NCBI GenBank assembly: GCA_021786315.1
Contig: JAJYNN010000002.1
Span: 204,402 to 268,401, forward strand
DNA length: 64,000 nucleotides
Reading direction: 5' to 3'
DNA from: a bacterium
GTDB taxonomy: Bacteria; Patescibacteriota; Microgenomatia; Daviesbacterales; UBA10151
Positions 12,888 through 52,823 of the stretch are shown piece by piece; within the stretch, counting starts at the first letter, position 1; each line of letters begins with the position of its first letter. Below the pieces are notes generated by a model that did no database searches, had not been told where the DNA came from, and worked only from the letters and a program-made list of their open reading frames with translations. The position numbers were made by a program, and so were the translations under genes.

Positions 12888-13115
12888 AAGGGCACTCCTT
12901 GGCGCAAGTTAAGGGGTGCCCTTGAGAATTGGAAAGCTAAGAATTTGTTTTGCGTCTTTTTTAGAAAAAGACGCCCAAAAATCGCCCACGGGAACGGTCC
13001 CTAAATTCTACGGCTTGCTGGTCGGGGGAAAGCTGCCCCCTCGATCACGGCTTTGCCGGATCGGCATCCCCCTGACAGCTTCGCCTAGAATTCTTAACGG
13101 GCTTACGTTCCAAGT
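12888..13115 (+). ncRNA. Candidate structured RNA/MITE element, copy A: 5' palindromic hairpin, 'gagaattggaaagctaag', stem-loops with covariation, 3' motif ttaacgggcttacgttcca.
   Basis: About 150 nt are virtually identical to copy B (22676-22980). Motifs are conserved, with compensatory stem changes, relative to copies C (33207-33438) and D (29191-29428). Confidence 0.4.
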
Positions 13116-13278
13116 GGGCCAGGAAGAAAGAGGGAAGAAGAGGTTGTAGGTTTATTCCACTTGCACTAGGTATGGTCAAAGCCGTAAAATTGAGACTAAC
13201 AATGAAGAAGTATCAACCAAACCAGATAAGGATCTACTCGCAAGGCTCGCAGACCCTTGTCTTTGAGGGAGGAGTTAA

Positions 13279-15666
13279 ATGAGTATTGGTAAATATATTC
13301 CCTCAAAGATTGAGCCTAAGTGGCAAAAGAGGTGGGAGGAGAGCAACCTTTATTCCACCGACTTGTCCAAGCCAAACAAGTATTACGTTTTAGCTGAGTT
13401 TACCTACCCTTCCGGCGACCTCCATATGGGCCATTGGTTTACCTTTTCCGGGGCAGATATCTTTGCCCGCTATAAGAGGCTAAACAGCTTCAATGTCTTT
13501 TTCCCTAATGGTTTTGATGCTTTTGGCTTGCCGGCCGAAAACGCTGCCATCAAGCGGGGAATTCACCCACAAGATTGGACTTTAGCAAACATCGAACGGA
13601 TGAAACAGCAGTTTGCCACCATGGGTGCTAGTTTTAGCTTTGATCACGAGGTTATCACCTGCTTACCGGAATATTACAAGTGGAACCAGTGGATTTTTTT
13701 GCAGATGCTCAAGCGGGGTTTGGCCTACAAAGGCAAATATTTATCAAACTGGTGCAGTAAGTGCCAGACTGTGTTGGCTAATGAAGCTGTGGAAGCGGGG
13801 GCCTGCTGGAGATGCGGGACGGAAGTTGTGCAAAAGGAGATTGACCAGTGGTTTTTCAAAATCACCGAGTATGCCGACAGGCTCATTTGGCCGGAAAAGC
13901 CGGATGTTGATTGGCCTAAATCATTGCGTGACGCCCAGAACATTTGGATTGGCAGATCCGCCGGGGCGTTAGTAAAGTTTGATGGGCTGGAAGTGTTTAC
14001 GACGCGTCCGGACACGCTTTTCGGGGCTACCTTTGTTGTTGTCAGTCCCGAACACCCGCTGCTAAAACAACTAACTGAGGCTAATGAGCAACAAAAAGTT
14101 GAGGACTATGTAGCGGCCGCCAAAAAGAAAAGTGAATTGGAGAGAAAAGAGAACAAAGACAAGTCGGGGGTATTTACCGGCTCCTTTGTTAAAAACCCAA
14201 TGACCGGAGAAGAGATTCCGGTTTGGGTGGCTGACTATGTTTTACCGGGGTATGGGACGGGAGCCATTATGGCTGTTCCAGCTCACGACCAACGGGACTT
14301 TGAGTTTGCCAAAAAGTTTGGTTTGGAGATAAAACAAGTCATTAAGGCTGGGGGTCCTGCCGCTCTAACCCAAGCTTATGAAGGAGACGGGGTGCTAATT
14401 AATAGTGGGGAGTACGATGGGTTAAGTATCGAAGAAGCGAAGAAAGTTATAACAGACTTTCTGGCAAGTAAGCGCATTGGTTCGCAGATGATTTATTACC
14501 ACTTGCACGATTGGTCAATTTCCCGGCAAAGGTATTGGGGAACTCCGATCCCGGTTATTTACTGTGAGAAGTGCGGCACTGTGCCTGTTCCGGAAGAGGA
14601 CCTGCCGGTCAAGTTGCCTTATGACGTTGATTATGCGCCTTCCGGCAAGCCGCCTTTGGCCACCAACGAAGATTGGCTGAATGTGAAGTGCCCCAAGTGT
14701 GGAGGGGAAGCCAAAAGGGATGCGGAAACTATGGATACTTTTGTGGACTCTTCCTGGTACTTCTTCCGCTACCTGGATCCTAAGTTCGATATCGCCCCTT
14801 TTGATAAAGAGCTGGCTCAAAAAATTATGCCGGTTGATATTTACTTTGGAGGAGCGGAACACAATTTAGGCCACACCCTCTATTCCCGGTTCTTTACCAA
14901 AATTTTCCATGACTTAGGCTTAACTGATATAGAAGAATATGCTTTGAGACGGATCAATCACGGAATTGTCTTGGGTCCGGATGGCCAGAAGATGAGCAAG
15001 TCCCGGGGGAATGTAGTCAATCCGGATGAAGAGGTGAAAAAATACGGTGCTGACGCAGTGAGGATCCATATGGCCTTCTTTATGCCCTATGAAGGTTCAT
15101 CAGGGCCGTGGATTTCCGAGCGGGTTTGGGGACCATACAGGTTTCTGGAACGGGTTTGGAACTTATTTGATAAGGTAACTGGAGACCAACCGCAAGCGAA
15201 AGACCTCTTAATGATGAATCGGGCAATTAAGAAAGTTGGCCAGGATATTGAAGGGATCAGGTTTAACACCGCTGTGGCGGCCTTAATGGAGTGGTTAAAT
15301 TACTTAAGTGGCAGGGAAAAGGTTAGCCGGGAAGAGTACAAGACTTTCCTGCAGCTTTTGGCACCTTTTGCCCCGCATATGACAGAAGAATTGTGGGAGA
15401 TGATGGGGGAGAAATACTCCATTCACGAGCAACCATGGCCAAAATTTGAGGAGAAGCACTTGGAAGAAGAGGAAGCAACCGTTGCGGTTTCAGTTAACGG
15501 CAAGGTCCGGGACCAGCTGGTGATTGGAAAAGATATAGCAAGTGATAGTAAGGTAGTAGAAAATAAGGCCAAAGAGAGCCAAAAAGTGCAAAAGTTTCTG
15601 GAGGGGAAAGAGATTAAGAAAGTCGTGTATATACCTGTGAAAATAATCAACTTCGTTACGGACTAA
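13279..15666 (+). CDS. leuS: Leucyl-tRNA synthetase (795 aa).
   Basis: Class I aaRS with HMGH motif (GDLHMGHWF) and KMSKS motif (QKMSKSRGN). A GGGAGGAG Shine-Dalgarno sequence sits 7 nt upstream of the ATG. Confidence 0.9.
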   Translation: MSIGKYIPSKIEPKWQKRWEESNLYSTDLSKPNKYYVLAEFTYPSGDLHMGHWFTFSGADIFARYKRLNSFNVFFPNGFDAFGLPAENAAIKRGIHPQDWTLANIERMKQQFATMGASFSFDHEVITCLPEYYKWNQWIFLQMLKRGLAYKGKYLSNWCSKCQTVLANEAVEAGACWRCGTEVVQKEIDQWFFKITEYADRLIWPEKPDVDWPKSLRDAQNIWIGRSAGALVKFDGLEVFTTRPDTLFGATFVVVSPEHPLLKQLTEANEQQKVEDYVAAAKKKSELERKENKDKSGVFTGSFVKNPMTGEEIPVWVADYVLPGYGTGAIMAVPAHDQRDFEFAKKFGLEIKQVIKAGGPAALTQAYEGDGVLINSGEYDGLSIEEAKKVITDFLASKRIGSQMIYYHLHDWSISRQRYWGTPIPVIYCEKCGTVPVPEEDLPVKLPYDVDYAPSGKPPLATNEDWLNVKCPKCGGEAKRDAETMDTFVDSSWYFFRYLDPKFDIAPFDKELAQKIMPVDIYFGGAEHNLGHTLYSRFFTKIFHDLGLTDIEEYALRRINHGIVLGPDGQKMSKSRGNVVNPDEEVKKYGADAVRIHMAFFMPYEGSSGPWISERVWGPYRFLERVWNLFDKVTGDQPQAKDLLMMNRAIKKVGQDIEGIRFNTAVAALMEWLNYLSGREKVSREEYKTFLQLLAPFAPHMTEELWEMMGEKYSIHEQPWPKFEEKHLEEEEATVAVSVNGKVRDQLVIGKDIASDSKVVENKAKESQKVQKFLEGKEIKKVVYIPVKIINFVTD

Positions 15667-15748
15667 AAAAGGTTTCTACTTAGCAATCCGCTATTTTTTC
15701 TGCTAGGCTATTAAAGTCCCAGATTAGGTTGTCGCAGAGCACTTTTAT

Positions 15749-15784
15749 AAGGTGACGCCTTGATGTACATCAAGGCGTCACCTT
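15749..15784. repeat. Type-1 palindromic element (perfect 36-nt palindrome).
   Basis: aaggtgacgccttgatgtacatcaaggcgtcacctt, flanked by ttata...gagaac. Confidence 0.85.
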
Positions 15785-15799
15785 GAGAACTCTTCTTGC

Positions 15800-16252
15800 T
15801 TGACGGCCAACCTTCTTCTGACTTACCATGAACCCATGGTGCGTGATGACAAGTGGCTTCTTACCCGTTTAGACTTTATCTGGAATAACCATTTCTCCGA
15901 TGTGCCGCAAATCAATCCTGTTTTTATCCGTTTTGGCAGGTTTGCCCGGCTCCGTTTTGGTTCCATCAGGATGGACCCCCGGTCCAAAAAGACCTTCATT
16001 ACCATTACCGGAATGTTTAAGGACCCGAAAATTTCGGAAGAGATAGTGGACCACACGATTGCCCATGAACTTTGCCACTATACCCATGGCTTTTCCTCGC
16101 CCCACAAAAGGCTGCACAAATTTCCGCACGAGGGGGGAATCATTAAGGCTGAACTACAAAATAGGGGTTTGATATATTTGTATAAGGCATACAGGGAATG
16201 GATTAAGGACTACAGGGAAGAATTAAGGGAATATTACCGGAGGAGAAGATAA
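15800..16252 (+). CDS. DUF45/YgjP-like (M48-family-like) metal-dependent hydrolase; HExxH.
   Basis: The motif IAHELCHYTHGFSSP follows the HEL(C)H consensus of DUF45 proteins. Confidence 0.5.
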   Translation: MTANLLLTYHEPMVRDDKWLLTRLDFIWNNHFSDVPQINPVFIRFGRFARLRFGSIRMDPRSKKTFITITGMFKDPKISEEIVDHTIAHELCHYTHGFSSPHKRLHKFPHEGGIIKAELQNRGLIYLYKAYREWIKDYREELREYYRRRR

Positions 16253-16268
16253 TTGTTGCCTGCTTTAT

Positions 16269-16283
16269 AAGGTGACGCCTTGA
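16269..16283. repeat. Solo half-unit of the type-1 element (ttataaGGTGACGCCTTGAgaac), a single arm with no partner.
   Basis: Its flanks (ttataa...gagaac) are the same as those of the full hairpin at 15749; it sits just 5' of comEA. Confidence 0.7.
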
Positions 16284-16903
16284 GAACTACTATTATGGAA
16301 GACCAAAGCGGAGTGGATTCGTTTATTAATAAATACAAACTACCCTTAGGCATGGGGTTGGTGGGGGTGGTTTTGCTCATTGGCGGGATAGTTTCCTCCG
16401 GGATTATCCCCAAGACCTTTGTAAAGTCCACAAAAAGTTCGGCTGCCGCCACTTCCAATTACTCCAAACAGGAAACGGGAACAAAAGTGGATGTTTCGGG
16501 AGCGGTAGCTAAACCCGGAGTGTATACCTTAAACGGCAACTCCCGGGTGGAGGATGCCCTAAAAGCGGCGGGCGGGGTAACTGAATCGGCTGACCCGGTA
16601 TATTTATCCAAAACTATCAATCTTGCACAAAAGGTATCAGACGGGATGAAGATCTATATCCCCAGGGTTAACGAAGCCGGGCCGTCAGCGGCAGTAGCCG
16701 GGGCTTCGGTGGTGCCGGGGAAGCTGGTGGATGTGAACACCGCAACTTTAGATGATTTGGATAAGCTTCCCGGAGTAGGGCCAACGACAGCCCAAAAAAT
16801 TATTGATAACCGGCCGTATGGGGGAATAGAGGAGCTGCTAACCAAAAAGGCCGTTTCCAGAACGGTTTACGAGAAGATCAAAGAACAAATCTCCACTTGG
16901 TAA
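16280..16903 (+). CDS. comEA: Competence protein ComEA (TM anchor, SLBB domain, C-terminal helix-hairpin-helix DNA-binding domain); real start probably the ATG at 16295.
   Basis: VNTATLDDLDKLPGVGPTTAQKIIDNRPYGGIEEL is a canonical ComEA HhH segment. Confidence 0.8.
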   Translation: MRTTIMEDQSGVDSFINKYKLPLGMGLVGVVLLIGGIVSSGIIPKTFVKSTKSSAAATSNYSKQETGTKVDVSGAVAKPGVYTLNGNSRVEDALKAAGGVTESADPVYLSKTINLAQKVSDGMKIYIPRVNEAGPSAAVAGASVVPGKLVDVNTATLDDLDKLPGVGPTTAQKIIDNRPYGGIEELLTKKAVSRTVYEKIKEQISTW

Positions 16904-17037
16904 GAATAATTCTCAATTTACAATTTTCAGTTTTCAAATAATTTTCAAAATCTAAATTTCCAAACAGCTTGAAAATTCGGTCATTGAAAATTCATTCTAA
17001 ATTGGTACTTGGTAATTAAAAATTTTATACTAGATAT

Positions 17038-18042
17038 GTGGCTAAGCTTTTAGGGGTAGGTGCTGCTCTTTGGCTGGTTGTTTTTGCCTTCAGGGTAATC
17101 TTGATGGGTGGGATTGATCCCACTTATCGTGATCAGGAGGTAAAAATGCTTTCACCTCTCCGCCAGCAATTGGAGGAAGTGATTGATAAAACGCTTCCTT
17201 ACCCTCAATCAGCCCTTTTGTCCGGAATCCTTTTGGGAAGCCAAAACAATCTTCCTTTTAAGCTCAAAAATGACCTGAAAACTACCTCAACTATCCATAT
17301 GGTGGTCGTTTCCGGCCAGAATTTATCCATGGTGGCGGGGTTTGTGATGAGCCTGGTTTATTTTCTGGGCAGGCGGAAAACGATTGTTTTAACCCTATTG
17401 GCGGTAGCTTTTTATAGCCTATTAACCGGTTTCCAGGTTCCGGTGATCCGGGCGGGGATTATGGTCTTTTTGGCTTACCTGGCCCAGCTTTTAGGCAGGG
17501 AACGTCAGGGCCCTTGGGTATTGTTCCTGACGGCGGGTTTGATGCTCCTTTATAACCCCAACTGGCTGCTTTCTATTTCCTTTCAGCTGTCGTTTTTGGC
17601 CACTTTTGGGGTAATCGTGGTGGCGCCGGTGATTGCCAGTAGGCTGAAAAAGGTGCCAAAAGTTTTACGGGAGGATTTAGGGGTTACATTGTCGGCCCAG
17701 TTTTTGGTTTTGCCGGTAATTGCCTATAACTTCGGACAGATATCCTTGATTGGTATATTAGTTAACAGTTTGATACTGTGGAGTATACCTCTGGTGATGA
17801 TCTTTGGGTTCATTGGTTTGGGGTTGGGGATGGTCAATACATTCTTGGGGCAGGTGGCGGGACTGGTTCCGGGGATACTTTTGACCTACTTTATCGATAT
17901 GGTCCAATTTTTTGCCAAAATTCCGGGATCAAGCCTTGTAATAGGGGAAACAGGAATAATTTTATGGTTGGGCTATTATTTAATAATTGGAGCTTTAATT
18001 TGGATTCTCAGAGTGAAGGGAGATGGAGCTCAAGAATTTTAA
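17038..18042 (+). CDS. comEC: ComEC/Rec2-family membrane channel domain only; it lacks the metallo-beta-lactamase domain, as is typical of CPR.
   Basis: Polytopic membrane protein with the ComEC 'competence' domain signature (TIHMVVVSGQNLSMV, resembling HLLAISGLH). Confidence 0.65.
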   Translation: MAKLLGVGAALWLVVFAFRVILMGGIDPTYRDQEVKMLSPLRQQLEEVIDKTLPYPQSALLSGILLGSQNNLPFKLKNDLKTTSTIHMVVVSGQNLSMVAGFVMSLVYFLGRRKTIVLTLLAVAFYSLLTGFQVPVIRAGIMVFLAYLAQLLGRERQGPWVLFLTAGLMLLYNPNWLLSISFQLSFLATFGVIVVAPVIASRLKKVPKVLREDLGVTLSAQFLVLPVIAYNFGQISLIGILVNSLILWSIPLVMIFGFIGLGLGMVNTFLGQVAGLVPGILLTYFIDMVQFFAKIPGSSLVIGETGIILWLGYYLIIGALIWILRVKGDGAQEF

Positions 18043-18157
18043 ATTTACAATTTTAAGTTTTTAAATAATTTTCAATGATAAAATTTTTAAATTTAAGACA
18101 TTCTAATTCGATTTAAAATTTGAGCTTTAGAATTTAAAATTATGGTATGATTATTCT

Positions 18158-19840
18158 ATGGTTAAAGATCAACTTTTAAGGGATCTAAAAAAGGCGGTTA
18201 AGGATTTAGGCTACCAAGCAAATGATATAGTTTGTGCTATTCCTCCGACACCGGCCTTTGGAGACTACTCCTCAAATATCGCGTTACAACTGGCTAAACC
18301 GGAAATAAAAAACGGTAAGCAATCTCCAATAGATATTGCTAATAAAATTAAGGGAAAATTAGACAAGACCAACTACTTGGAAAAGGTGGAAGTTGCCGGC
18401 GGAGGGTTTCTTAACTTTTTTATCAAAGGCGAAGTTTTAGTTAAAAATCTAACCCAGGTTACCCAAATCCCCAAGGATGAAAAACCCCAGAAGCTGATGG
18501 TGGAGTACGGCCATGCCAATATTTTAAAGGAGGTACATTTGGGCCACCTCCGGACATTCATTTTGGGGGAATCTTTAGCCAGGATTTTAGGTGGCGCCGG
18601 CCACAAGGTTTTCCGGGCCAACTACCAGGGGGATATTGGCCTGCATGTGGCCAAGGCTATCTGGGGGATAGAGAAGCTGGGGTTACCCTCCAAAGAGCTC
18701 AATTTTGAGGAAAAGGCCGAGTACTTGGGCAAGGCTTATGCCCAGGGCAGCCTGGACTATGAGGAGAGCTCGGAGGCCAAGCAAAAGATTAACCAGATCA
18801 ACGTTTCCCTATATAGGAAGGAACCCCAATTCCAGGAACTGTATAAGCTGGGGCGGAAGTGGAGCCTGGAATACTACGACGAGGTCTACAAAATTTTGGG
18901 TATTAAATATGACAAGCTTTTTTTTGAAAGCGAAGTCTATTCCCGGGGGGAGCAGCTGGTTTTGGAAAATACCGGTAAGATCTTTGAAAAAAGTGACGGG
19001 GCGGTTATTTTCCCCGGAGAAAAATACGGCCTGCACAACCGGGTCTTTATCAGCTCGGCCGGAGTACCGACTTATGAAGCTAAGGATTTAGGTTTGTCTG
19101 AGAAGCAGTTTGAAACTTTTCCCTTTGACCGGGATATCCATGTTGTCGGCAGTGAGCAGGAAGGCTACTTTAAGGTGGTCATTAAAGCGATTGAGATGGT
19201 ATTGCCCAAGCTTTCCGGCCGCGAATTTCACCTTTCCTACGGCATGGTGGGCTTAAAAGAGGGCAAGATGTCATCCAGAACCGGGGAGGTGGTGACGGTC
19301 AATGAGCTTTTGAATATGGTGGCTGAAAAGGTGCGGGAGGTTGTGAAAGAAAGCAGGCTGGAAGTTAACCGGGAGGTGGTAAGGTCGGTGGCGATGGGGG
19401 CGATTAAGTTTACTTACCTTAAGTTTGCCCCGTCTTCCAATTTGGTTTTTGACCTTCAACAGTCAGTTTCCCTGCAGGGTGACAGTGGCCCGTACTTGCA
19501 ATATACCCACGCCAGGATCCGGTCAGTTTTAAGGGAAGCGGGGGAAGGGGGTTCAGAATTAAGAATGGAGAATTTAGAATTAGAGGTGGAGGAGAGGAAT
19601 TTGGCAAGGAGGTTGGAATACTTTGGGTCTGTTGCCGGACAGGCCGGGAAAGAGTATCGGCCGAACCTGATTTGTGAGTATTTGCTGGATCTGGCGAAAG
19701 ATTTTAACCTTTTTTACCAAAAACATCGTATCATTGCCTCAGAGAAGAAAGATTTAAGGCTTGCCCTAACCCAGGCTACCGGAGAGGTCCTAAAGACCGG
19801 CCTCGAGCTTTTGGGTATTGAGGCCCCAGAAAGGATGTAG
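18158..19840 (+). CDS. argS: Arginyl-tRNA synthetase.
   Basis: HIGH-class motif HLGHLRTF; the length and C-terminal DALR-like region fit ArgS. Confidence 0.85.
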   Translation: MVKDQLLRDLKKAVKDLGYQANDIVCAIPPTPAFGDYSSNIALQLAKPEIKNGKQSPIDIANKIKGKLDKTNYLEKVEVAGGGFLNFFIKGEVLVKNLTQVTQIPKDEKPQKLMVEYGHANILKEVHLGHLRTFILGESLARILGGAGHKVFRANYQGDIGLHVAKAIWGIEKLGLPSKELNFEEKAEYLGKAYAQGSLDYEESSEAKQKINQINVSLYRKEPQFQELYKLGRKWSLEYYDEVYKILGIKYDKLFFESEVYSRGEQLVLENTGKIFEKSDGAVIFPGEKYGLHNRVFISSAGVPTYEAKDLGLSEKQFETFPFDRDIHVVGSEQEGYFKVVIKAIEMVLPKLSGREFHLSYGMVGLKEGKMSSRTGEVVTVNELLNMVAEKVREVVKESRLEVNREVVRSVAMGAIKFTYLKFAPSSNLVFDLQQSVSLQGDSGPYLQYTHARIRSVLREAGEGGSELRMENLELEVEERNLARRLEYFGSVAGQAGKEYRPNLICEYLLDLAKDFNLFYQKHRIIASEKKDLRLALTQATGEVLKTGLELLGIEAPERM

Positions 19841-19922
19841 ACCGGAACATCAGAATATCAGAGTATCAGAAAATCAGATAACTCCGACACTCCGATACTC
19901 TGAAACGCCGACACACTGAAAT

Positions 19923-20990: not shown

Positions 20991-21070
20991 ATTTTCAAGT
21001 CTCAATTTTAAATTCTCAATGAATTTTTAATGATTTAATCTTGAAAATTGTAAATTGAAAATTAATCAAT

Positions 21071-21622: not shown

Positions 21623-21639
21623 CTTCTAATAATGGTCGG

Positions 21640-21700: not shown

Positions 21701-21707
21701 TGTTCTA

Positions 21708-21780
21708 GTCGGGGACGAGGGAATTGAACCCTCTACTTCTCGAACCCGAATCGAGCGTTCTACCGATGAACTAGTCCCCG
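21708..21780 (-). tRNA. tRNA-Pro (anticodon CGG).
   Basis: Cloverleaf folded by hand: 7-bp acceptor CGGGGAC/GTCCCCG, anticodon loop TTCGGGT, T-loop TTCAATT; CCA not encoded. Confidence 0.75.
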
Positions 21781-21789
21781 AAATTTATG

Positions 21790-21862
21790 TACCCCTGGAG
21801 GGAGTTGCACCCCCGGCCTTTCCCTTAGGACGGGACCGCTCTATCTACTGAGCTACAGGGGC
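21790..21862 (-). tRNA. tRNA-Arg (anticodon CCT); slightly atypical T-loop TGCAACT and a G27-A43 mismatch.
   Basis: GCCCCTG-TA-GCTC-AGTAGATA-GAGC ... loop GTCCTAA ... GGGGGTGCAACTCCCTC-CAGGGGT-A. Confidence 0.55.
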
Positions 21863-22668: not shown

Positions 22669-22675
22669 TCTTAAA

Positions 22676-22980
22676 AGGGCACTCCTTGGCGTAAGGCAAG
22701 GGGTTACCCCTTCGGTTTGAGCCCTCAGGGTCGAAGACTTATGAATTGGAAAGGTATGGTTTTTCTTTTGCGTCTTTTTTAAGAACTTGCTCTCAAGTTC
22801 GCAAGACCTTGCGACAGCAAGCTGTCTTAAAAAAAGACGCCCAAAAATCGCCCACGGGAACGGTCCCTAAATTCTACGGCTTGCTGGTCGGGGGAAAGCT
22901 GCCCCCTCGATCACGGCTTTGCCGGATCGGCATCCCCCTGACAGCTTCGCCTAGAATTCTTAACGGGCTTGCGTTCCAGT
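22676..22980 (+). ncRNA. Candidate structured RNA/MITE element, copy B. It is identical to A over about 150 nt but carries an extra about 50-nt hairpin inserted in its first stem-loop.
   Basis: ...aagacgcccaaaaatcgcccacgggaacggtccctaaattctacggcttgctggtcgggggaaagctgccccctcgatcacggctttgccggatcggcatccccctgacagcttcgcctagaattcttaacgggcttgcgttcca. Confidence 0.4.
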
Positions 22981-23007
22981 GGGCTAGGGAAAAAGAGGAC
23001 GGAAAAC

Positions 23008-24291: not shown

Positions 24292-25500
24292 TCAACAGCT
24301 TTCTAACACTTTGAGGGTTTCTCTGGCAGCTTTTTCCCAGGAGAATTTCTTGATTTGGGAAAATCCCTTATTGGAAAGTTCTTTTCGCAGCTTCGGATCG
24401 CTTGTCAGTTTACTGATTCCTTTGCTAATTTCCTCTTCCTGGTAAGGGTTGACGATGATGGCGGCGTTTCCGGCCACTTCCGGACAGCTGGAAGTATTGG
24501 AAGTTAAGACCGGGCAGCCGCAAGCCATGGCTTCCAGGATTGGCAAGCCAAAACCTTCAAACAGGGATGGGTAAAGGAAAGCTAAAGCCCCGGAATACAA
24601 AGCCGGAAGTTCCTCATCTGGAACATATCCTAAAAATTTAACCTGTTTTTCAATGCCTAATTCTTGGGGTAGGGAGTAAATCTCATCTGCCAGCCAGCCT
24701 TTGGAACCAGCCAAAACAAGCTGGAGTTTCTTATAAGGTGACGCCTTGACGTACGTTAAGGCGTCACCTTGAAAACCGGTCGCCCCTTGCTTTATAAATT
24801 TGGCATATGCTTTAATTAACTGTTCCAGGTTTTTTCTGGGTTGGATAGTTCCTACAAACAGGAAATAATTTTGATCTTCTAAGTTATATTTCTTTAGCGT
24901 TTGTCCTAATTGACTGCCCCTTACCGGTTTAAAAAGTTTTTCATTGTAACCCTCGTAAACAACAGTAATTTTATCTGCCGGTATCCCTACCTTATTAATT
25001 AAATCTTCTCTGGTGGACTTGGAAACGGCAATGATATGGGTAGCAGACTTCAATTGCCGGTGAGTCATAAAGTTTAAGTAAAGCCTTTGTTTTAATTGAT
25101 GGGTTCGAGGTAAATATTCCGCTCCCAAATCGTGGACTGTGACCACAGTTTTTAGGCCGGGTTTACGGAAAAGGGGGAGCGTGTGGGCGGGGATGAAAAG
25201 GACATCCAGATCTTTCTCTAAAAATGTTCTTTTCGCCAAGCCATACTGGGTCCAGAGCCTGTGCAAAGGTATGAGATCAGCCTCAAAATTAGCGGCTTCC
25301 GCTATCCCGGACCCGATCCGGGATCTAAATTCCTGGATCCCTGCTTTCGCAGGGACGATCCCGGAAAACGGACTTAAATAAACTTTATATTGATTCCGGT
25401 GGTCAATTTTAGCCAGATGAGAGAGTATCTGGTAGGAATAATTCTCTGTCCCTGTCCTTTTGCCTATAAAAGATCGGGATGCATCGTAGCCAATGATCAT
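24292..25500 (-). CDS. Family 1/4 glycosyltransferase carrying an in-frame palindromic-element insertion.
   Basis: C-terminal GT-B motif FEGFGLPILEAMACGCPV; the hairpin element encodes GFQGDALTYVKASPYK. Confidence 0.8.
   Translation of the reverse strand: MIIGYDASRSFIGKRTGTENYSYQILSHLAKIDHRNQYKVYLSPFSGIVPAKAGIQEFRSRIGSGIAEAANFEADLIPLHRLWTQYGLAKRTFLEKDLDVLFIPAHTLPLFRKPGLKTVVTVHDLGAEYLPRTHQLKQRLYLNFMTHRQLKSATHIIAVSKSTREDLINKVGIPADKITVVYEGYNEKLFKPVRGSQLGQTLKKYNLEDQNYFLFVGTIQPRKNLEQLIKAYAKFIKQGATGFQGDALTYVKASPYKKLQLVLAGSKGWLADEIYSLPQELGIEKQVKFLGYVPDEELPALYSGALAFLYPSLFEGFGLPILEAMACGCPVLTSNTSSCPEVAGNAAIIVNPYQEEEISKGISKLTSDPKLRKELSNKGFSQIKKFSWEKAARETLKVLESC
24735..24770. repeat. Type-1 palindromic element inserted in frame inside the GT4 gene.
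   Basis: aaggtgacgccttgacgtacgttaaggcgtcacctt lies within ORF 24292-25500, and the reading frame is maintained. Confidence 0.85.
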
Positions 25501-25612
25501 AATAATTTCTAATTTTTAATTTACAATTTTTAAATAATATCTAAATGATTAAATGTTTTAAAATCGGAACATTGATAATTTATTTAAAATTTAAAATTTA
25601 TAATTGAAAATT

Positions 25613-26632: not shown

Positions 26633-26741
26633 CTAAATTTTACTTCCGGGTTAACCCGATCACAAGACCTATTAAATATATAGAAATAGAACAAGAAGTA
26701 AAAGTTGAGAGTTATAAGCAGAGCTTGCGGCTGTTGGCCTA

Positions 26742-26778
26742 AAGGTGACGCCTTGCCTTACGACAAGGCGTCACCTTG
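26742..26778. repeat. Type-1 palindromic element.
   Basis: aaggtgacgccttgccttacgacaaggcgtcacctt. Confidence 0.85.
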
Positions 26779-26803
26779 AGAAAAACATGGTACACTATGA
26801 GAA

Positions 26804-27550: not shown

Positions 27551-27658
27551 AATAAACCTCAATGATTAATGTTCAAAATTTAAACATTCAGAAATTAGAA
27601 ATTCATTGAGACTTGAAAATTGTAAATTGAAAATTTAATTTGTGCTACACTGGAAAAG

Positions 27659-28588
27659 ATGAATGTTTACGTTGGTGTTGATTGCGGAGCCACCAATCTC
27701 CGTGTAGGCGTGGCTGACGAAAGCGGAAGGGTTATTGCCTCCTCAAAAGTCCCATCTCCTTTAAGATCCCATCCGTTAAAGTTTGCCGAAAAGATAAAAG
27801 AGCAGGTTGATTTACTTCTGGAGGGTAAAGAGCATCGGGTTTTGGCTATTGGAGTAGGTATGCCCGGACCCATTGATCTTAAGAAAGGTGTGATCCTGCC
27901 CTCCGCAAACTTAGGGAACCTGGAACCGATTGATTTAACCCGCCAATTTGAAACGGTATTCGGTGTTCCGGCATATTTTGATAGAGATACCAACCTGGCT
28001 TTAATTGGCGAAGTTTGGCGGGGGGCGGCAGTAAATAAAAAAGAAGTGGTGATGTTGACTTTAGGGTCCGGAGTTGGTGGAGCAGTGATGGTGGATGGCA
28101 AGATTGATCGCGGAGCAACCGGTAAAGGTGGGGAGATGGGTCATATAATTTTATGGATGGAAGTTCCCCCAAAACAAGAATTAATCAAGCGTCACTTTTG
28201 TGTAGGAGGCAAGGATTGGGATCCGGCAACTATGGTTCTGACCCATCCTCAGGTATCTTTGAAGAAAGGCCAGATCACTTTCCATTGCGGGTTGGGACAC
28301 GAAAATTGTCTGGAAGCCTTAATTAATTCCGCTAAAAGTGTGGATGAGTTGGGTACCTATCTTGGGTATGGGATAGCCAATCTGGTTGATATTTTTAATC
28401 CTCAGGCAGTGATTATTGGTGGAGGTAAGTTGAATATCGGTGACTTCCTGCCTCAGGCGGTTTGTGTGATGAAGGAAGTAGGGATGAAGCCGGCAGTTGA
28501 CGAGGTGGAAGTCTCTTATGCTAAGCTAAAGGAACTAAGCGGTGTTTACGGCGGAATCAAAATCGCAATAGAAGGCACGTATGATTGA
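27659..28588 (+). CDS. ROK-family sugar kinase (glucokinase-like).
   Basis: VGVDCGATNLRVGV...GVGMPGPID...LALIGE. Confidence 0.75.
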   Translation: MNVYVGVDCGATNLRVGVADESGRVIASSKVPSPLRSHPLKFAEKIKEQVDLLLEGKEHRVLAIGVGMPGPIDLKKGVILPSANLGNLEPIDLTRQFETVFGVPAYFDRDTNLALIGEVWRGAAVNKKEVVMLTLGSGVGGAVMVDGKIDRGATGKGGEMGHIILWMEVPPKQELIKRHFCVGGKDWDPATMVLTHPQVSLKKGQITFHCGLGHENCLEALINSAKSVDELGTYLGYGIANLVDIFNPQAVIIGGGKLNIGDFLPQAVCVMKEVGMKPAVDEVEVSYAKLKELSGVYGGIKIAIEGTYD

Positions 28589-29099
28589 GACAAGAACCAG
28601 ACAGGATTTAAAAGATGTCTTGATGGATCCTAAAGCCCCCGGGGTTAAAGACCCCTATTTTGTGATTCGCGGTGAAGCCGGACAAAATATTACAGTCCTT
28701 ACTCCTGGTCTGAACGGAAATGAATTCAATAAAACCTACGGCCATTTCCACAACTATCAGGGTGTGGAGATTTACCATGTTGTTTATGGCCAGGGAGTTT
28801 TGTTGATGCAAAGAAATGACGAGATGGGAGAGGCCAAAGAGGTCAAAGTGGTAAGTTTACGGCCGGGGATGACTGTGGAGATCCCTTCCGGGTATGGCCA
28901 CGCTCTAATTAATGTGGGGAAAACTTATTTGGTGGTCATTGATAACTCACCAACGGGTAAAAATGTCCATAACTTTGAACCGGTAAAAGAAAAACAAGGC
29001 TTTGCCTATTATGTGGTGGACAAGCGGGGGGAGGTAGGTTTTGAGCCTAATCCCAATTACCGGATGCATCCCCAAATCACTACTGAATCTGAGGGTTGA
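28581..29099 (+). CDS. Cupin-type (archaeal-like) glucose-6-phosphate isomerase.
   Basis: TYGHFHNYQGVEIYHVV ... EIPSGYGHALINVG matches the cPGI metal-binding signature. Confidence 0.6.
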   Translation: MIETRTRQDLKDVLMDPKAPGVKDPYFVIRGEAGQNITVLTPGLNGNEFNKTYGHFHNYQGVEIYHVVYGQGVLLMQRNDEMGEAKEVKVVSLRPGMTVEIPSGYGHALINVGKTYLVVIDNSPTGKNVHNFEPVKEKQGFAYYVVDKRGEVGFEPNPNYRMHPQITTESEG

Positions 29100-29190
29100 T
29101 TTAACGTTTTTGGCTCTGCAAATACCCTAATCTACCTGCACTAGCAAAACTTCCACCTAATTGCCAATTTTCTGTCTTTTGTTCTTAAAG

Positions 29191-29428
29191 AAGGTGACCT
29201 CCTTGACGTTAGGCAAGGGGTCACCTTAAGAATTGAAAAGCTAATGTTTTTTTGCAACTTTGGTGGCAAAGTTGCGCAAAGCCACTTGCAGTGAAAGTCG
29301 ACCTAAAACCTTCATCAGTTGTCTAGCGGGAACTTTACCCTTCGGAAATTCGGCTACTTCGTAGCGTCAGTTTCCGCTTTCCCTGCTGCCAACTGACTTG
29401 GTTTTTTAACGGTCTTTGTTTCAATGCA
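29191..29428 (+). ncRNA. Candidate structured RNA/MITE element, copy D (the most divergent).
   Basis: aaggtgacctccttgacgttaggcaaggggtcacctt + aagaattgaaaagctaat + ttgcaactttggtggcaaagttgcgcaa ... ctagcgggaactttaccc ... ttttttaacggtctttgtttcaatgc. Confidence 0.35.
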
Positions 29429-29467
29429 AGGGAAGATGAAACGGATAAACAATTGGAAGAAAATATC

Positions 29468-29683
29468 TTAAGCGGCAGATGCTGATTTTTGAGTGATACC
29501 GAGTAACCAGAGGACAGCTTCCTTCTTGTAACGGCGGTCACCCCTAGAGTTAATTCTAATTGCCGGTAATTTTCCCCTTTTGCCCCATCTTTTAATGGTT
29601 AGGGGAGAGACACGCAAAACTTCAGCAACTTCTTTGACAGTTAATAAATCAGGAAGATTTTCGAGTGATACTTTGTCCGCCAT
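29468..29683 (-). CDS. Small stand-alone HTH (MerR/excisionase-type, HTH_17-like) DNA-binding protein.
   Basis: LTVKEVAEVLRVSPLTIKRWGKRGKLPAIRINSRGDRRY; resembles the HTH motifs at the N-terminus of the giant protein. Confidence 0.65.
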   Translation of the reverse strand: MADKVSLENLPDLLTVKEVAEVLRVSPLTIKRWGKRGKLPAIRINSRGDRRYKKEAVLWLLGITQKSASAA

Positions 29684-29737
29684 ACTGAATCTTTTCTGTA
29701 ACTTTTTAGATGACCAAACATATCAAAGTCATCGCAA

Positions 29738-29759
29738 AAGTGACACTAGCTGTCACTTT
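29738..29759. promoter_or_regulatory. Perfect palindrome aaagtgacactagctgtcacttt upstream of the small HTH gene; candidate operator.
   Basis: Inverted repeat AGTGACA-ctagc-TGTCACT, 55-75 nt upstream of the start at 29683. Confidence 0.4.
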
Positions 29760-29799
29760 TATATCACAACTCGTCAGATAGTGTCAATACTTTAACACA

Positions 29800-29830
29800 A
29801 AAAAGACCCCGTTTCCGGGGTCCTTTTTGA
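29800..29830. terminator. Rho-independent (bidirectional) terminator downstream of rplL.
   Basis: aaaaagaccccgtttccggggtcctttttg: a GC stem flanked by A and T tracts. Confidence 0.8.
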
Positions 29831-29850
29831 AAAACCGTAGCTTTTTGAAC

Positions 29851-30405
29851 TTACTGTAATTCTACAGTGGCTCCAGCGGCGGTTAATTTAGCTTTAGCTT
29901 CTTCAGCTGTAGCTTTATTGACACCCTCCAAAACTGGTTTTGGAGCAGCTTCGACTAAGTCTTTAGCTTCTTTCAAACCAAGAGTGGGGACGAGTTCCCG
30001 AACAGCTTTAATAGCACCAATTTTGTTGGCACCAGCATTAGCGAGAACTACGTTAAAGGTTGTCTTTTCTTCGGCGGGTTCACCAGCGGCTGCGGGAGCA
30101 GCTCCGGCTGCGGCAACTGCTACAGGAGCAGCAGCTGTGACGCCAAACCTGTCTTCCAAAGCCTTAACCAGCTCAGCGAGCTCGAGCACTGAAAGTGTTT
30201 CGATAGACTCGATGATCTTTTCTAAGGAAGCAGAAACTGGTTTCGCGGCTTTCTTTGGCTCTTCAGCGGGAGCTTCCTCTTTGGGAGCTTCAGCCTCAGG
30301 AGCAGTTTGTTCCTCAACAGGAGCAGCTTGCTCTTCAACTTGAGTTTCCTCAGCTGGAGTTTCAACTTGCTCTTCTGCTTGTACATTTTGATCTTCGTCT
30401 GCCAT
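29851..30405 (-). CDS. rplL: Ribosomal protein L7/L12 with an acidic low-complexity N-terminal extension of about 55 aa.
   Basis: Canonical region [33 protein letters not shown] ... [11 protein letters not shown], preceded by [20 protein letters not shown]... Confidence 0.85.
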
Positions 30406-30479
30406 ATTGCTTTGTCATTCCGGACTTGATCCGAAATCTAATTTATTTAGACCCCTGATCAAGTCAGGGATGACGTACT

Positions 30480-31010
30480 TTATTCACCCCCTTTCTGTAT
30501 TCTAATTTGATCTAAAGCATAAACTAAGTTTCTTAAATTGCCCTGCAAAACATTGAGCATTCCAGTCAAAGGTGCGGCCAATGTGCCCACAACCTGAGCC
30601 CGGAGTTCTTGTTTGCCAGGTAGAGTAGAAAGCCTGGTGATAGCGGCGCTGTCCAAAAATTGGCCATCCAAAATACCACCTTTGATCTTACCAACCTGGT
30701 TATCCTTTAAGGCTTTGACTAAAAGTTTGATCGGGGAGATCTCGTCTTCATAGCTGAATAAGGTAGCAATTGGCCCTTTTTGGGTTTCTTCAGGGAGAGT
30801 AGGGAGGTCAGCATTCTTTAAACCTAAATTCAAAAGGGTGTTTTTGGTAACGGTAAACTCAGCCTGGGCCTCATCCAGCTTCTTTCTTAAATCAGAAAGC
30901 TGGGCCATGGTCATGCCCTGATAATCAGTAAAAACCACAGACCTGGATCTGCTTAGCTTATCACCGTAATTTGTAACTGTTTGCTCTTTTTGAGCCCGAT
31001 TTTTAGCCAT
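30480..31010 (-). CDS. rplJ: Ribosomal protein L10.
   Basis: Position upstream of rplL, length, and an N-terminal region typical of L10. Confidence 0.8.
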   Translation of the reverse strand: MAKNRAQKEQTVTNYGDKLSRSRSVVFTDYQGMTMAQLSDLRKKLDEAQAEFTVTKNTLLNLGLKNADLPTLPEETQKGPIATLFSYEDEISPIKLLVKALKDNQVGKIKGGILDGQFLDSAAITRLSTLPGKQELRAQVVGTLAAPLTGMLNVLQGNLRNLVYALDQIRIQKGGE

Positions 31011-31192
31011 AAAAAAATCCTCGCTTCGAGGATTTTGAATTATGAATTAGGAATAATGAATTAAGAATTAAATTCTCAATTCTGAATTCTACATTCTGAA
31101 TTCGTAATGCCTCGGTGAGACTTGCTTGTGTGCTCACTTTCTTAAGCTTCTGTATTGTACCTAATGTTTTATTAAAAATCAATGGATATGCT

Positions 31193-32176
31193 TTAGAGTG
31201 CGGGGACCCACATCCAATAACCGCCGGAGCGGTTAGAGAAGCCGTTAGGCGAGTCATAGCCCCCACTTTGTTTAGCACTGGAGGTTGATATACCTTCAAT
31301 ATTGCCCTGGGGGCCTCCTCCGGAGCCTGGGGTGGGGGTGGCGGAAGCAGAAGCGGTAGGAGTTGGGGAGTACCAAACGCCGGAATCCCCGGTCTTGCCA
31401 AAGTTTTTGGTGACGTAGGCTAAATCCAGGTTGTTTATCACTCCGTCATTGTTAAAATCTGCCCTTGGGTTCCAGTTGGATGAGGAGGAAGTTGCCCCGT
31501 AAAGGCTTTTGGCAACGGTGTAGTCGGCGGAGTTGATGGTGTTATCTTCGTTTAAGTCCCCAGAGAGCAGGTTTAAAGCCTGGCCTTGGTTTAAATTAGT
31601 TTCAGTGGCTCCCATAGAAAAGGTGGAGGCAGAATCAACTTGTCCCGGTCCCTTGATATAGGCAGTGTAGGTTGATCCGGGGTTGAGCCCGGCCAGGCTC
31701 AGACCGGAAAACGCCCCGGAGTCCGGAACGTCAACGGTAAAAGTTAAGATAAAGGTAGGTTTGGTGGTGACGTTGCCGGAAGCGATCCCGACAAAGACCT
31801 TCGCGGCATTTTTACCTTCCGGCCGGCCTTCCAAAGTGACCTTGAAATTAAGCGTGGGGCCGAAAGCCAGGTTTACGGCAGGTGTTGGGGTAGGCTCAGC
31901 AGTCCCCGGAGCGGTGGAGGATGACCCGGGAGCATCTTCCAGCATCTTTTTTAAGTCGGAAAGTGGGGAATCGGCGGGGACTTCCTGGGTGGCGGTAGCG
32001 GACTTTGTGGCGACTTTGGTAATGTGTTGGTTAATTGTAGCGGGGACTTTCTCGTTGGAAGCCTGAGATTGAAAAATCTGGGAATTTTTCAGCAGGGAGA
32101 ACGATAAAGGAATGCTTATTAAGATGAGTAAAAAGCCCGCAATGATGAGAATTTGCTTAAAACTAAGGTTGGACAT
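31193..32176 (-). CDS. Secreted/anchored protein with a type I dockerin-like repeat pair.
   Basis: N-terminal TM; DLNEDNTINSADYTVAKSLYG ... ADFNNDGVINNLDLAYVTKNFG follows the dockerin Ca-binding repeat pattern. Confidence 0.6.
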   Translation of the reverse strand: MSNLSFKQILIIAGFLLILISIPLSFSLLKNSQIFQSQASNEKVPATINQHITKVATKSATATQEVPADSPLSDLKKMLEDAPGSSSTAPGTAEPTPTPAVNLAFGPTLNFKVTLEGRPEGKNAAKVFVGIASGNVTTKPTFILTFTVDVPDSGAFSGLSLAGLNPGSTYTAYIKGPGQVDSASTFSMGATETNLNQGQALNLLSGDLNEDNTINSADYTVAKSLYGATSSSSNWNPRADFNNDGVINNLDLAYVTKNFGKTGDSGVWYSPTPTASASATPTPGSGGGPQGNIEGISTSSAKQSGGYDSPNGFSNRSGGYWMWVPAL

Positions 32177-33202
32177 GATCTCAGATTATCATATAATGAA
32201 TTGATGTTAAACCGGAAGGTGTTAATTCGGATTCTTTTAAACTCCCTTTTGGGGGTTATTTTAATCTTTGTTTGGAGCCGGTTTGTTAACTTAAATGAGC
32301 TTATAAAGGTTTTAAAGACGGTAGACGCCCGGTTTGCCGTAGTCTTTTTCTTTCTGTTTATCATCTCGGGGGTTTTGAGAAGTCTAAGGCTTAAACTTCT
32401 TTTAAAACACTATAAATTTTCCCTGAAAGATTTAATTATGCTTAACTATTTGAGCCAGTTCTTGTCTTTTTTAATCCCGGTTCGGGCAGGGGAGATTGCC
32501 AAAAGTGTTTACCTTTCCACCCAGATGGAAACTTCCTTATCCAAAACCGTAGTCTGGGTGTTTATTGACCGCTTCCTTGATTTTTGGATTGCGGTAGTTT
32601 TTATTGGCGCCTTGTTACCGTTTATTAAAACCAATCTGCCGGGGGGATTTATCAATATCGTTATTTTGGCGCTGGTCATATTTACCTTGGCCTTTTTTGT
32701 TGCCCTAAAAAGTGAGGATTTAATTAAGAAAATCGCTAATTTTTTGAGTAATTTCTTGGTTGTAAGTAATATTAAGAAATGGTTTGTTACATTTACGCAC
32801 AATATTGCGGAAGGGTTTGAGGTCCTCCGCCGGCCGCCTTTGGGGCTGGCAGCTTTGATTGGTCTTACTGTCCTGGCAACACTTTCTGATTCCATGGTTT
32901 GGATAATTGCTTTTCGGGCGTTTGATTTTAAATTGGATGTTTTAAGAAGTGTTTGGGCGGACGCCTTAACTGCCTTAACCTTTTTAATCCCATCAGCGCC
33001 GGGATATGTCGGGTCGGCGGAGGCAGCGGGGGCAGCTGTATTTACCGGGATTTTAGGTTTGCCGATCAATATAGTTTCCGCAGCTTTGGTCTTCTTCCAT
33101 ATCTTAACATTGCTGACAATCTTGATTCTGGGAATTACCTCGTTGTACCTATTAAAGTTTGATTTAGGTATAGTTTGGAAAAAACTCCGCAGTAAAGACT
33201 AA
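32153..33202 (+). CDS. Lysylphosphatidylglycerol-synthase-TM-like (UPF0104 / flippase-like) membrane protein.
   Basis: Polytopic; LRSLRLKLLLKHYKFSLKDLIMLNYLSQFLSFLIPVRAGE fits the family's conserved region. Confidence 0.6.
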   Translation: MLKTKVGHDLRLSYNELMLNRKVLIRILLNSLLGVILIFVWSRFVNLNELIKVLKTVDARFAVVFFFLFIISGVLRSLRLKLLLKHYKFSLKDLIMLNYLSQFLSFLIPVRAGEIAKSVYLSTQMETSLSKTVVWVFIDRFLDFWIAVVFIGALLPFIKTNLPGGFINIVILALVIFTLAFFVALKSEDLIKKIANFLSNFLVVSNIKKWFVTFTHNIAEGFEVLRRPPLGLAALIGLTVLATLSDSMVWIIAFRAFDFKLDVLRSVWADALTALTFLIPSAPGYVGSAEAAGAAVFTGILGLPINIVSAALVFFHILTLLTILILGITSLYLLKFDLGIVWKKLRSKD

Positions 33203-33206
33203 AAAA

Positions 33207-33438
33207 AGGTGACTGCCTCGCCGGATGGCAGGCGTCACCTTAAGAACTGGAAAGCTAAGGTTATGTTCACGCTTTTGGCCGCAAAAGCGTGGGAAAACTC
33301 TGCTCGCAGAAAGTCGCCCTAAACCTCGTCATTTTCTAGTCGGGGGCTCACCCCCTCGGAAATTCACTGGTTGAGAGTTCAGTTTCCGGTTCCCCCTGAC
33401 AGAAAACTCCTCGGTTTTTAACGGGCTTGCGTTCCAGT
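33207..33438 (+). ncRNA. Candidate structured RNA/MITE element, copy C.
   Basis: aaggtgactgcctcgccggatggcaggcgtcacctt + aagaactggaaagctaag + cacgcttttggccgcaaaagcgtg ... ctagtcgggggctcaccccctcgg ... ccccctgacag ... ttaacgggcttgcgttccagt. Confidence 0.4.

Positions 33439-51163: not shown

Positions 51164-52823
<1,660 letters not shown>

Follow-up and report, generated by a model that had tools for sequence, protein, structure and literature searches.

A structure-conserving composite repeat linked to REP-type hairpins in a Daviesbacteria genome

Introduction

What kind of element recurs four times on one strand within 20.5 kb of a bacterial genome, keeps its fold while much of its sequence changes, and encodes no protein? 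The question is raised by a 64-kb stretch of a Daviesbacteria genome (64,000 nucleotides, positions 204,402 to 268,401 of contig JAJYNN010000002.1, assembly GCA_021786315.1; hereafter the window, to which all coordinates refer unless a relative is named). An original prediction made from the sequence had marked four structured elements there, copies A, B, D and C in order along the plus strand. At about 1 Mb, Patescibacteria genomes are usually considered streamlined, so that a covarying 190-nt module present four times within 20 kb of core genes (a ribosomal protein operon, leuS) is not expected. To our knowledge, almost no non-coding RNAs have been characterised in this lineage. We report here that the family is real, that it had not been catalogued before, and that it is a composite repeat with a conserved structure, in which a hairpin of the repetitive extragenic palindromic (REP) type is followed by a folded module and a purine-rich tail, and we weigh what such a repeat may be.

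Results

Four plus-strand copies of a composite element

Sequence alignment showed that all four copies lie on the plus strand and align end to end, each composite measuring ~260-335 bp and consisting of a palindrome, a ~190-nt module and a purine-rich tail. A covariance model (R1; 201 positions, 51 base pairs) built from copies A, C and D gave only four significant matches in the 64 kb and none else below E=1. These were copy C (33242-33442, 210.8 bits), copy D (29228-29429, 198.8 bits), copy A (12924-13118, 173.4 bits) and copy B (22741-22984, 136.5 bits), all on the plus strand. The number, strand and coordinates of the copies in the original prediction are thus borne out by the sequence and by the covariance-model search that it had proposed, which recovered all four at 137-211 bits. 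In addition, the conserved 3′ 18-mer was observed three times in the window against 0.09 expected by chance. About 75 kb of this genome were read in total, and the four copies all fall inside 20.5 kb.

The copies are related to very different degrees. Copies A (12961-13133) and B (22827-22998) share 96.5% identity over 173 nt, which upholds their near-identity but replaces the earlier figure of about 100% over 150 nt, and their 5′ parts are only 85-90% identical. For copies C and D, identity amounts to 69.6% over 240 nt. Comparisons among A/B, C and D give 60-70%, and A/B and C/D have only motif blocks left in common. Copy B carries two private insertions, one of ~30 nt that breaks the 3′ arm of its first hairpin and one of ~50 nt in the loop of helix P2 (about 22780-22829), neither of which was found again elsewhere in the window. 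A fifth, truncated copy considered at 12534-12568 was rejected (BLAST E=0.2, with the covariance model silent there).

The module folds as a closed three-way junction conserved through compensatory changes

The central module (module 2, ~185-235 nt) folds on the plus strand as a closed three-way junction. It occupies 12924-13113 in copy A (a GAGAA tail and a ~185-nt core), 22746-22979 in copy B (the core with the ~50-nt P2-loop insertion), 29228-29425 in copy D and 33242-33437 in copy C (in both, an AAGAA tail and the core). Helix P1, at 12929-12934/13108-13113 in copy A, joins the two ends of the module and covaries, reading CUGGAA/UUCCAG in C, UUGAAA/UUUCAA in D (AUUGAAA/UUUCAAU when taken one pair further) and UUGGAA/UUCCAA in A, with a U-G pair in B. 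P2 (12952-12975 in A) is a 9-10-bp hairpin whose sequence is wholly different among A/B, C and D. The long arm P3-P4-P5 begins with P3a (GCCC/GGGC, or GACC/GGUC in D), continues through a conserved asymmetric loop (U against UUAAC) into P3b and P4, and ends in a distal hairpin, P5. P4 is a long-range helix, GUCGGGGG/CCCCCUGAC, whose strands in copy A end at 13028 and start at 13068, and in copy D it is replaced by the compensatory pairing GCGGGAA/UUCCCUGC. Conserved unpaired blocks are AAGCUAA past P1 and CCUAAA at P3, and UUAACGG is a further conserved internal loop of the long arm.

In the model-based alignment, standard pairs fill 83% of cells, 22 of 51 pairs have changed on both sides, and the covariation score is 0.41. 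When the 3′ partner was slid by 1-3 columns, only 35-52% of cells were paired, two to five pairs had changed on both sides and scores fell to 0.05-0.14; none of 500 shuffles matched the observed pairing values. The set represents about three independent lineages, which places the test below R-scape grade, but the slid controls keep the relatedness of the copies, and the difference from them is large. The fold is strongly conserved through compensatory mutations. The claim of structure-preserving covariation therefore stands, its absence having been one of the outcomes named beforehand as counting against the family. One helix had to be redrawn: the local stem proposed earlier (ctagtcggggg-loop-ccccctcgga) cannot form in copy D, and its GGGGG run instead pairs with the distal CCCCCUGAC to form the long-range P4, which covaries and is compensated in D. 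Among the four sequences, no convincing pseudoknot candidate was found.

Predicted folds reach about -65 to -105 kcal/mol on either strand, and for copy C the plus strand (z = -4.25, dinucleotide shuffles) and its complement (z = -4.28) are nearly equal, so that folding energy cannot separate the strands. The plus strand is favoured by an invariant G-U pair in the middle of P4 in all copies, by an excess of G-U pairs over A-C mismatches in the helices (nine against five), and by wobble pairs in the first hairpin of copy A. A folded plus strand fits RNA and single-stranded DNA alike.

The leading hairpin belongs to a REP-type family

Each of the four composites opens with a ~37-nt hairpin followed by RAGAA, at the same distance from the module. 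This hairpin (module 1) is a 36-nt palindrome, AAGGTGACGCCTTG-(8 nt)-CAAGGCGTCACCTT, built of two inverted 13-nt units, and it recurs in the window in at least 10 solo copies, making at least 14 full palindromes when the four composites are counted, nearly all of them intergenic. Short, extragenic, present in many copies and in one case paired tail to tail, it has the properties of REP sequences and of REPINs (doublets of REPs forming hairpins). The original prediction of a covarying hairpin at the start of the element is correct as to the hairpin, which is, however, not private to the element and forms a separate REP-type family; recognising it as a widespread repeat changes the anatomy of the element to a REP plus a module.

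Within the composites, the hairpin lies at 12886-12923 in copy A, where sequence and RNAalifold fold give the variant AAAAGGGCACTCCTTGG...TTAAGGGGTGCCCTT, in which three plus-strand pairs are G-T wobbles, and at 22673-22745 in copy B, where the ~30-nt insertion interrupting its 3′ arm is followed by an ATGAA tail. In copy D it was located by palindrome scan and fold at 29188-29227, and in copy C (33204-33241) it begins 2 nt past the stop codon of an LPG-synthase-like gene; all four are on the plus strand. The solo palindromes include a tail-to-tail pair (12443-12478 and 12490-12525), the first of which has the same inner part, CTCGCCGGATGGCAG, as the hairpin of copy C, and plus-strand copies at 15749-15784 and 26742-26777 (both with a GAGAA tail), at 24735-24770 and at 59503-59538, the last two identical in sequence and the latter with an AAGAA tail. 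A same-species contig from Logan begins inside the copy at 59503. On the minus strand, a solo palindrome at 38959-38995 is of the A/B hairpin subtype (85% identity to the hairpin of A over 48 nt). A GAGAA tail comes next on that strand, and the sequence beyond it is unrelated; this palindrome has the appearance of an unoccupied REP of the kind to which the module is joined in copy A. Subtypes are therefore common to solo and composite REPs, 38959 resembling A and 12443 resembling C. By our reading of the palindrome list, the RAGAA tails of REPs and composites are oriented 9:2 toward the plus strand, which is G-rich across the whole window. Degenerate palindromes lie at 11588-11623, 51439-51472 and 56050-56082, and a half copy near 57300. 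The first of these is a perfect palindrome with 14-bp arms inside a 3291-aa open reading frame (ORF), with its 13-nt units swapped (AAGGCGTCACCTT...AAGGTGACGCCTT), and so places REP-like sequence in coding DNA.

A related locus, L019 (GCA_964504665.1), shows what may be the enzymatic counterpart of such repeats. Its Y1_Tnp gene at 12170-12844 (224 aa) has hairpins on either side (12111-12144 and 12865-12896) that carry nearly the same 13-nt core, AAGGGGACGCCTT, as the REPs of the window, and by its sequence layout this is a classical arrangement of REPs around a REP-associated tyrosine transposase (RAYT). The Y1 transposase family of this type has thousands of members in Microgenomates, and a relative with 92% DnaB identity also has the AAGGTGACGCCTT unit. 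The L019 protein had no match in the window by tblastn, and none of its best 120 homologues lay on the source contig. As a separate observation, L019 holds two diverged, RAYT-like Y1_Tnp genes of 224-228 aa in its ribosomal-operon neighbourhood, at 7055-7741 and 12170-12844, the latter with GCCTCCAAGGGGACGCCTTGGAGG hairpins on both sides and the former with a similar hairpin upstream.

The elements are insertions relative to other Daviesbacteria

Copies B, C and D lie between convergent genes, 2-90 nt past plus-strand stop codons, and copy A lies in a divergent promoter region without an upstream plus-strand gene. Two convergent placements and one divergent placement had been reported; the divergent one is copy A, and the convergent ones number three.

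In order to place the copies relative to other genomes, we compared orthologous gene pairs. The gap between rplA and the convergent LPG-synthase-like gene measures 299 nt in the window and is filled by copy C, whereas the same two genes overlap in one relative (L023) and are separated by 86 nt of unrelated AT-rich sequence in another (L024). Copy D similarly lies in the 368 nt that separate the GPI-cupin gene from a merR-like gene convergent with it (29468-29683, minus strand), and in L013, where the merR-like protein is highly similar to that of the window, the stop codons of the two genes abut. The elements are insertions relative to other Daviesbacteria. In L019, the rplA/LPG-synthase gap is occupied by the second Y1_Tnp gene, and since this gene and copy C share the gap, it looks like an insertion hot spot.

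Same-species contigs (Logan SRR13201255 and SRR22746126; ENA ERZ27237183) are 99.97-100% identical to the window, and several of them end within the repeats: at 33400 in copy C (L011/L012), at 33233 in the REP of copy C (L029), at 29403 (L029) and 29292 (L028) in copy D, and at 59510 in a solo REP (L032). These breaks suggest that the genome contains more near-identical copies in other places, or that strains differ at these sites.

The module is followed by a purine-rich tail

The composites end in a purine-rich tract (module 3) on the plus strand. It covers 13114-13143 in copy A (90% purine over 30 nt), 22980-23007 in copy B (80% over 30 nt), where it reaches the stop codon of a convergent PEGA-domain gene, and 29426-29467 in copy D (77% over 30 nt), where it ends at the stop codon of the merR-like gene; copy C has a weaker A-rich tract at 33438-33455 (70% over 20 nt). 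In the 30 nt after P1, the purine fractions of the four copies are 0.90, 0.80, 0.77 and 0.63, against 0.51 ± 0.11 for the window, in which a fraction of at least 0.8 is reached at 0.9% of positions. Judged by their composition, the GA-rich tracts could serve as a protein-binding or Shine-Dalgarno-like tail. Those of A, B and D hold several GGA/GAGG motifs. In the same three copies, short stretches of the tract are predicted to be complementary to the C-rich internal loop of their own module (CCCUC/CCCUU).

The element is non-coding and matches no known RNA family

No reading frame is open across all copies, and copies C and D have stops in every frame. Within the window, these stops and a domain scan bear out the earlier claim that the element is non-coding and without an ORF partner. 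A small protein was considered and rejected on the same stops; copy B has a 91-aa ORF with no Pfam match. At gathering thresholds, Rfam 15 reported five tRNAs only in the whole window, and at E<=10 over copies A, C and D it gave noise far below the gathering scores, HEARO included, leaving HEARO, group I and group II introns, 6S RNA, small ribozymes and riboswitches unsupported. The omegaRNA/HEARO identity that had been proposed is thus not supported by the Rfam scan, nor by the 3′ end of the element, which has no hairpin like the first. That the copies might be fragments of a known gene, another outcome that the original prediction had named as counting against it, is contradicted by the lack of a coding frame and of an Rfam family.

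Other candidates were set aside on context. A cyanobacterial origin, the tracrRNA of a CRISPR-associated transposon, a T-box and a ribosomal-protein leader do not agree with the Daviesbacteria context, the convergent downstream genes and the empty Rfam search. For retron RNAs and those of defence-associated reverse transcriptases (DRT) or diversity-generating retroelements (DGR) there is no reverse transcriptase nearby. Group I introns, IStrons and known small ribozymes gave no Rfam signal, and the paper on Patescibacteria introns contains nothing comparable.

A scan with the sigma-70 consensus, from which promoters of the Candidate Phyla Radiation (CPR) may differ, and a search for terminators found no such site common to the copies. 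Between module interiors and flanks there was no complementarity of 7-9 nt common to the copies; real guides of the IS110 type are split and 4-7 nt long. No element in which the module overlaps or adjoins tnpB or iscB was found in the window, among the Pfam labels of the ~11 kb beyond it, or at the relatives' loci.

Discussion

A proposed mobile module linked to REPs

The reading that we favour, tentatively and with slightly less than even confidence, is that the family is a lineage-restricted, non-autonomous, REP-linked mobile module that carries a structured RNA. An enzyme acting on REP hairpins would propagate the composite in trans; it might be a RAYT-type Y1 transposase working on the single-stranded plus strand, or a REP-targeting recombinase comparable to that of the ISPpu9/ssr9 pair. 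Such an enzyme could move the REP and module as a unit, or could insert the module beside REPs already in place, at their RAGAA edge. The element is probably transcribed, and read-through from an upstream plus-strand gene would then give rise to a stable structured RNA. The fold would be kept either because the folded plus strand, as RNA or as single-stranded DNA, is needed for propagation, or through the read-through RNA. A mobile module accounts better than ordinary genes would for the constant fusion to a REP, for the subtypes shared with solo REPs, and for the uniform orientation on the G-rich strand. The same holds for the intergenic positions, the empty orthologous sites, the near-identity of A and B, and the lack of a promoter or terminator of its own.

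Several results weigh against this reading. No empty-site allele was seen within the species, and no direct repeat or target-site duplication flanks any copy. Fold and palindrome scan found no hairpin resembling hairpin 1 at the 3′ end, so that of the similar subterminal hairpins that mark both ends of IS200/IS605 palindrome-associated transposable elements (PATEs) only the 5′ one is present. None of the 50 ORFs in the window has a transposase, recombinase, nuclease, TnpB, IscB, IS110, Cas or reverse-transcriptase domain, and none appears among the precomputed Pfam labels (labels only were inspected) in ~11 kb beyond the right end. At 70% identity, the covariation seen between C and D is just as compatible with selection for a host function. 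Nor was the module met with elsewhere: no copy was found in ~100 kb of non-redundant DNA of related Daviesbacteria. An exact scan for the 3′ 18-mer in one genome for each of 185,579 species gave 10 matches, and in IMG/VR viral contigs four matches; the taxa were unrelated in every case, and the covariance model confirmed none of these matches. Three further viral scans gave no match. The 21-nt 5′ motif had three chance matches in JGI metagenomes.

With its filters off, the covariance model found nothing in 84 kb drawn from five relatives together with the right flank of the window. It was equally silent on a further 11 kb of the same genome and on 34 kb (~13 kb non-redundant) of the relative with 92% DnaB identity, which shares the REP motif. 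Searches by blastn of plasmid and phage collections gave no match. The original prediction had also counted absence outside the window as an adverse outcome, and this is what has been found so far, in searches that comprise exact-motif scans and ~100 kb of relatives' DNA. Since an exact scan succeeds only where the motif is perfectly conserved, and close relatives may be missing from the collections, absence elsewhere is weak evidence. The family nevertheless seems confined to this species or genus.

The earlier suggestion of a MITE, a miniature transposable element with inverted repeats, survives in part. Empty orthologous sites, the near-identity of A and B, and the contig breaks give the family a mobile, MITE-like flavour, but classical MITE features, terminal inverted repeats with a target-site duplication, were not found: the module termini are inverted over 6-7 bp only, and these covary like a helix.

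Alternative explanations

Beyond a merely mobile module, the module could be a new functional RNA of the CPR that rides on the REP system, either a guide or scaffold for a REP-recognising transposase or recombinase, or a ribozyme-sized RNA with a conserved junction core; as a guide or scaffold, it would let that enzyme move a selfish module made of RNA only, which would be a new kind of RNA-guided or RNA-dependent mobile element. We regard this reading as unlikely, at around one chance in five. A narrower form, to which we assign somewhat less probability, is an orphan guide-RNA scaffold (a TnpB/IscB omegaRNA, or a bridge or seek RNA of the IS110/IS1111 type) that has lost, or never possessed, a neighbouring protein gene, works with a protein encoded elsewhere and takes its guide from flank or loop nucleotides. 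It would be a sharper version of the favoured mobile module and the most interesting outcome. REP-like hairpins are of the type that the IS200/IS605-RAYT group of Y1 transposases recognises. In its size and its several helices the module fits a guide scaffold, the end motifs are strongly conserved, and the copies are mobile-looking insertions with one orientation in four of four cases. As expected of bridge or seek RNAs, or of an ssr9-like element, inserted at REP sequences, all four modules directly abut a REP-type hairpin, a known target of the IS110 family (PMC12288879). Against a guide scaffold stand the empty Rfam 15 search at E<=10, HEARO included, and the lack of a TnpB, IscB, IS110 or Cas domain in the 50 ORFs and the Pfam labels of the extra ~11 kb. 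The lack of a shared 7-9-nt complementarity between interior and flank and of a second subterminal hairpin like the first counts against it as well. We also know of no description of end-to-end closure, as provided here by P1, among the features of bridge RNAs.

Two further explanations place the element in the service of the host. In one, the copies are a family of sibling small RNAs (sRNAs), made from the 3′ untranslated regions (UTRs) of plus-strand genes or from their own promoters and acting in trans through single-stranded motifs or the Shine-Dalgarno-like, GGA-rich tail, with the REP incidental or serving in processing or stability. Compensatory changes at 60-70% identity argue for long-term selection in each lineage. 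The invariant G-U pair and the conserved loops also fit host sRNAs; three copies begin 2-90 nt past plus-strand stop codons, and the tails are conserved in their purine-rich character. However, searches for a conserved promoter or an intrinsic terminator found neither, the relatives lack the module at their orthologous sites and in ~100 kb of their non-redundant DNA, and it would be unusual for a 0.94-Mb genome to hold four 190-nt paralogues of an sRNA within 20 kb. That every copy is joined to a member of a repeat family also points to a repeat-like origin, and we consider host sRNAs improbable, about on a par with a new functional RNA of the CPR. In the other, to which we give less credence than to any reading named so far, the element acts only in cis, as a 3′-UTR or intergenic element like REP, BIME (bacterial interspersed mosaic element), ERIC or BOX that stabilises the upstream mRNA against 3′ exonucleases or insulates convergent units. 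REP-type repeats serve such roles in other bacteria, three of four copies sit between convergent genes right after a plus-strand stop codon, and the predicted folds are stable (about -65 to -105 kcal/mol). A plain hairpin would nevertheless suffice for such a role, which the three-way junction, the conserved unpaired motifs and the invariant G-U pair exceed; copy A is divergent and has no upstream plus-strand gene, and relatives do without it at these sites, where their convergent genes abut or overlap. Finally, the restriction of the family to one species could point to chance similarity, an assembly artefact or fragments of known genes. We take this to be very improbable in view of the 137-211-bit scores with no other match, the three occurrences of the 18-mer against 0.09 expected, the recovery of the same sequence, 99.97-100% identical, from several samples assembled independently in Logan and ENA, and the absence of a protein-coding frame and an Rfam family.

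Likeness to known systems

The closest parallel to the favoured mobile module is ssr9 of Pseudomonas putida KT2440. It is a segment for an sRNA only, flanked by boxes of which one imitates the REP target. After excision in circular form, the segment is carried into REPs by the transposase of ISPpu9 (IS110 family), and it occurs in solo copies (PMC12288879). Both families consist of several solo copies, in or next to REPs, without a transposase gene of their own, and in ssr9 the palindrome of the left-end box resembles the REP target and mobilisation takes place in trans. Unlike in ssr9, to which there is no sequence similarity, no ISPpu9-like or DEDD transposase occurs among the window ORFs, and the module is a ~190-nt three-way junction with end-to-end closure.

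REPs, REPINs and their RAYTs, and the mosaic BIMEs, are matched by a first hairpin that is short, extragenic, high in copy number and made of two inverted 13-nt units. The tail-to-tail pair at 12443-12525 is BIME-like, and the same-core hairpins flanking the Y1_Tnp gene of L019, together with the bias in orientation toward one strand, recall REP/RAYT systems. A REPIN is two REPs with a short spacer, whereas here one REP is joined to a long, self-folding module with no second REP. With IS200/IS605 PATEs and omegaRNAs (HEARO, RF02033), the family shares a structured RNA of 150-300 nt at a transposon end, a uniform orientation and a hairpin of the Y1-transposase type at one end, and orphan copies of such RNAs are known. 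It differs from them in matching neither HEARO nor any other Rfam model, in lacking a matching hairpin at the opposite end and a nearby TnpB, IscB or TnpA, and in that no full-length parent was found. ERIC/IRU, BOX, RUP, Correia/NEMIS and RPE repeats are likewise modular intergenic repeats of 100-300 bp, which are transcribed together with the genes beside them and form folded RNA. Repeats of the ERIC/BOX type are, however, simple long hairpins with terminal inverted repeats and often target-site duplications, and here the inverted termini measure 6-7 bp, there is no duplication, and the junction is branched with conserved loops. The family is best filed, not under the omegaRNA/HEARO label, but closer to small mobile elements of the REP-associated or rider-module kind, with a new structured RNA.

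If the module is a true rider on a REP/RAYT system or on a REP-targeting recombinase, it would join ssr9 as the second, independent case of a transposase parasitised by an RNA-only module, in a phylum very different from that of the ssr9 host and with a much more elaborate fold. If it is a guide scaffold or a catalytic core, it would define a new RNA family. Even as a mere species-specific repeat, it explains why short-read assemblies break at these loci. The interest of the family, known from one species, lies in its fold and its setting in a streamlined CPR genome.

Other features of the region

By homologues of its L1 and DnaB, the organism belongs to Candidatus Daviesbacteria within Patescibacteria/Microgenomates. 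The neighbours of the elements are housekeeping genes: leuS, argS, a comEC-like gene, ndk, a sortase gene, mreB, glycosyltransferase genes and a gene for a ROK kinase. The window also contains secE-nusG-rplK-rplA, rplJ-rplL, genes for penicillin-binding proteins, tgt, def and fmt. The rplK-rplA and rplJ-rplL halves of the ribosomal operon are split by the LPG-synthase-like gene (plus strand) and a dockerin-repeat gene (minus strand), over 29851-34725, an arrangement kept in L019, L023 and L024 and partly in L013 and L014. Ribosomal protein L1 (33502-34296) has a Lys/Glu-rich N-terminal extension of ~80 aa, with its Pfam match starting at residue 85, and L7/L12 (29851-30405) has an acidic Glu/Ala/Pro-rich extension of ~55 aa; the relatives' L1 and L7/L12 proteins are of similar length.

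Upstream of copy A, the 650-nt divergent region contains a long imperfect hairpin at 12611-12670, GUCCUAAGGCAGGAGUA...UACUCCUACCCUAGGAC, which is unrelated to the REP or the module. The 3291-aa ORF is a single frame on the minus strand (2365-12240) and probably encodes a giant surface protein. From 43.4 to 46.7 kb there are short ORFs only, without Pfam matches. The five tRNA genes are on the minus strand, at 21709-21862, 46083-46153 and 47397-47626, with two tight pairs among them.

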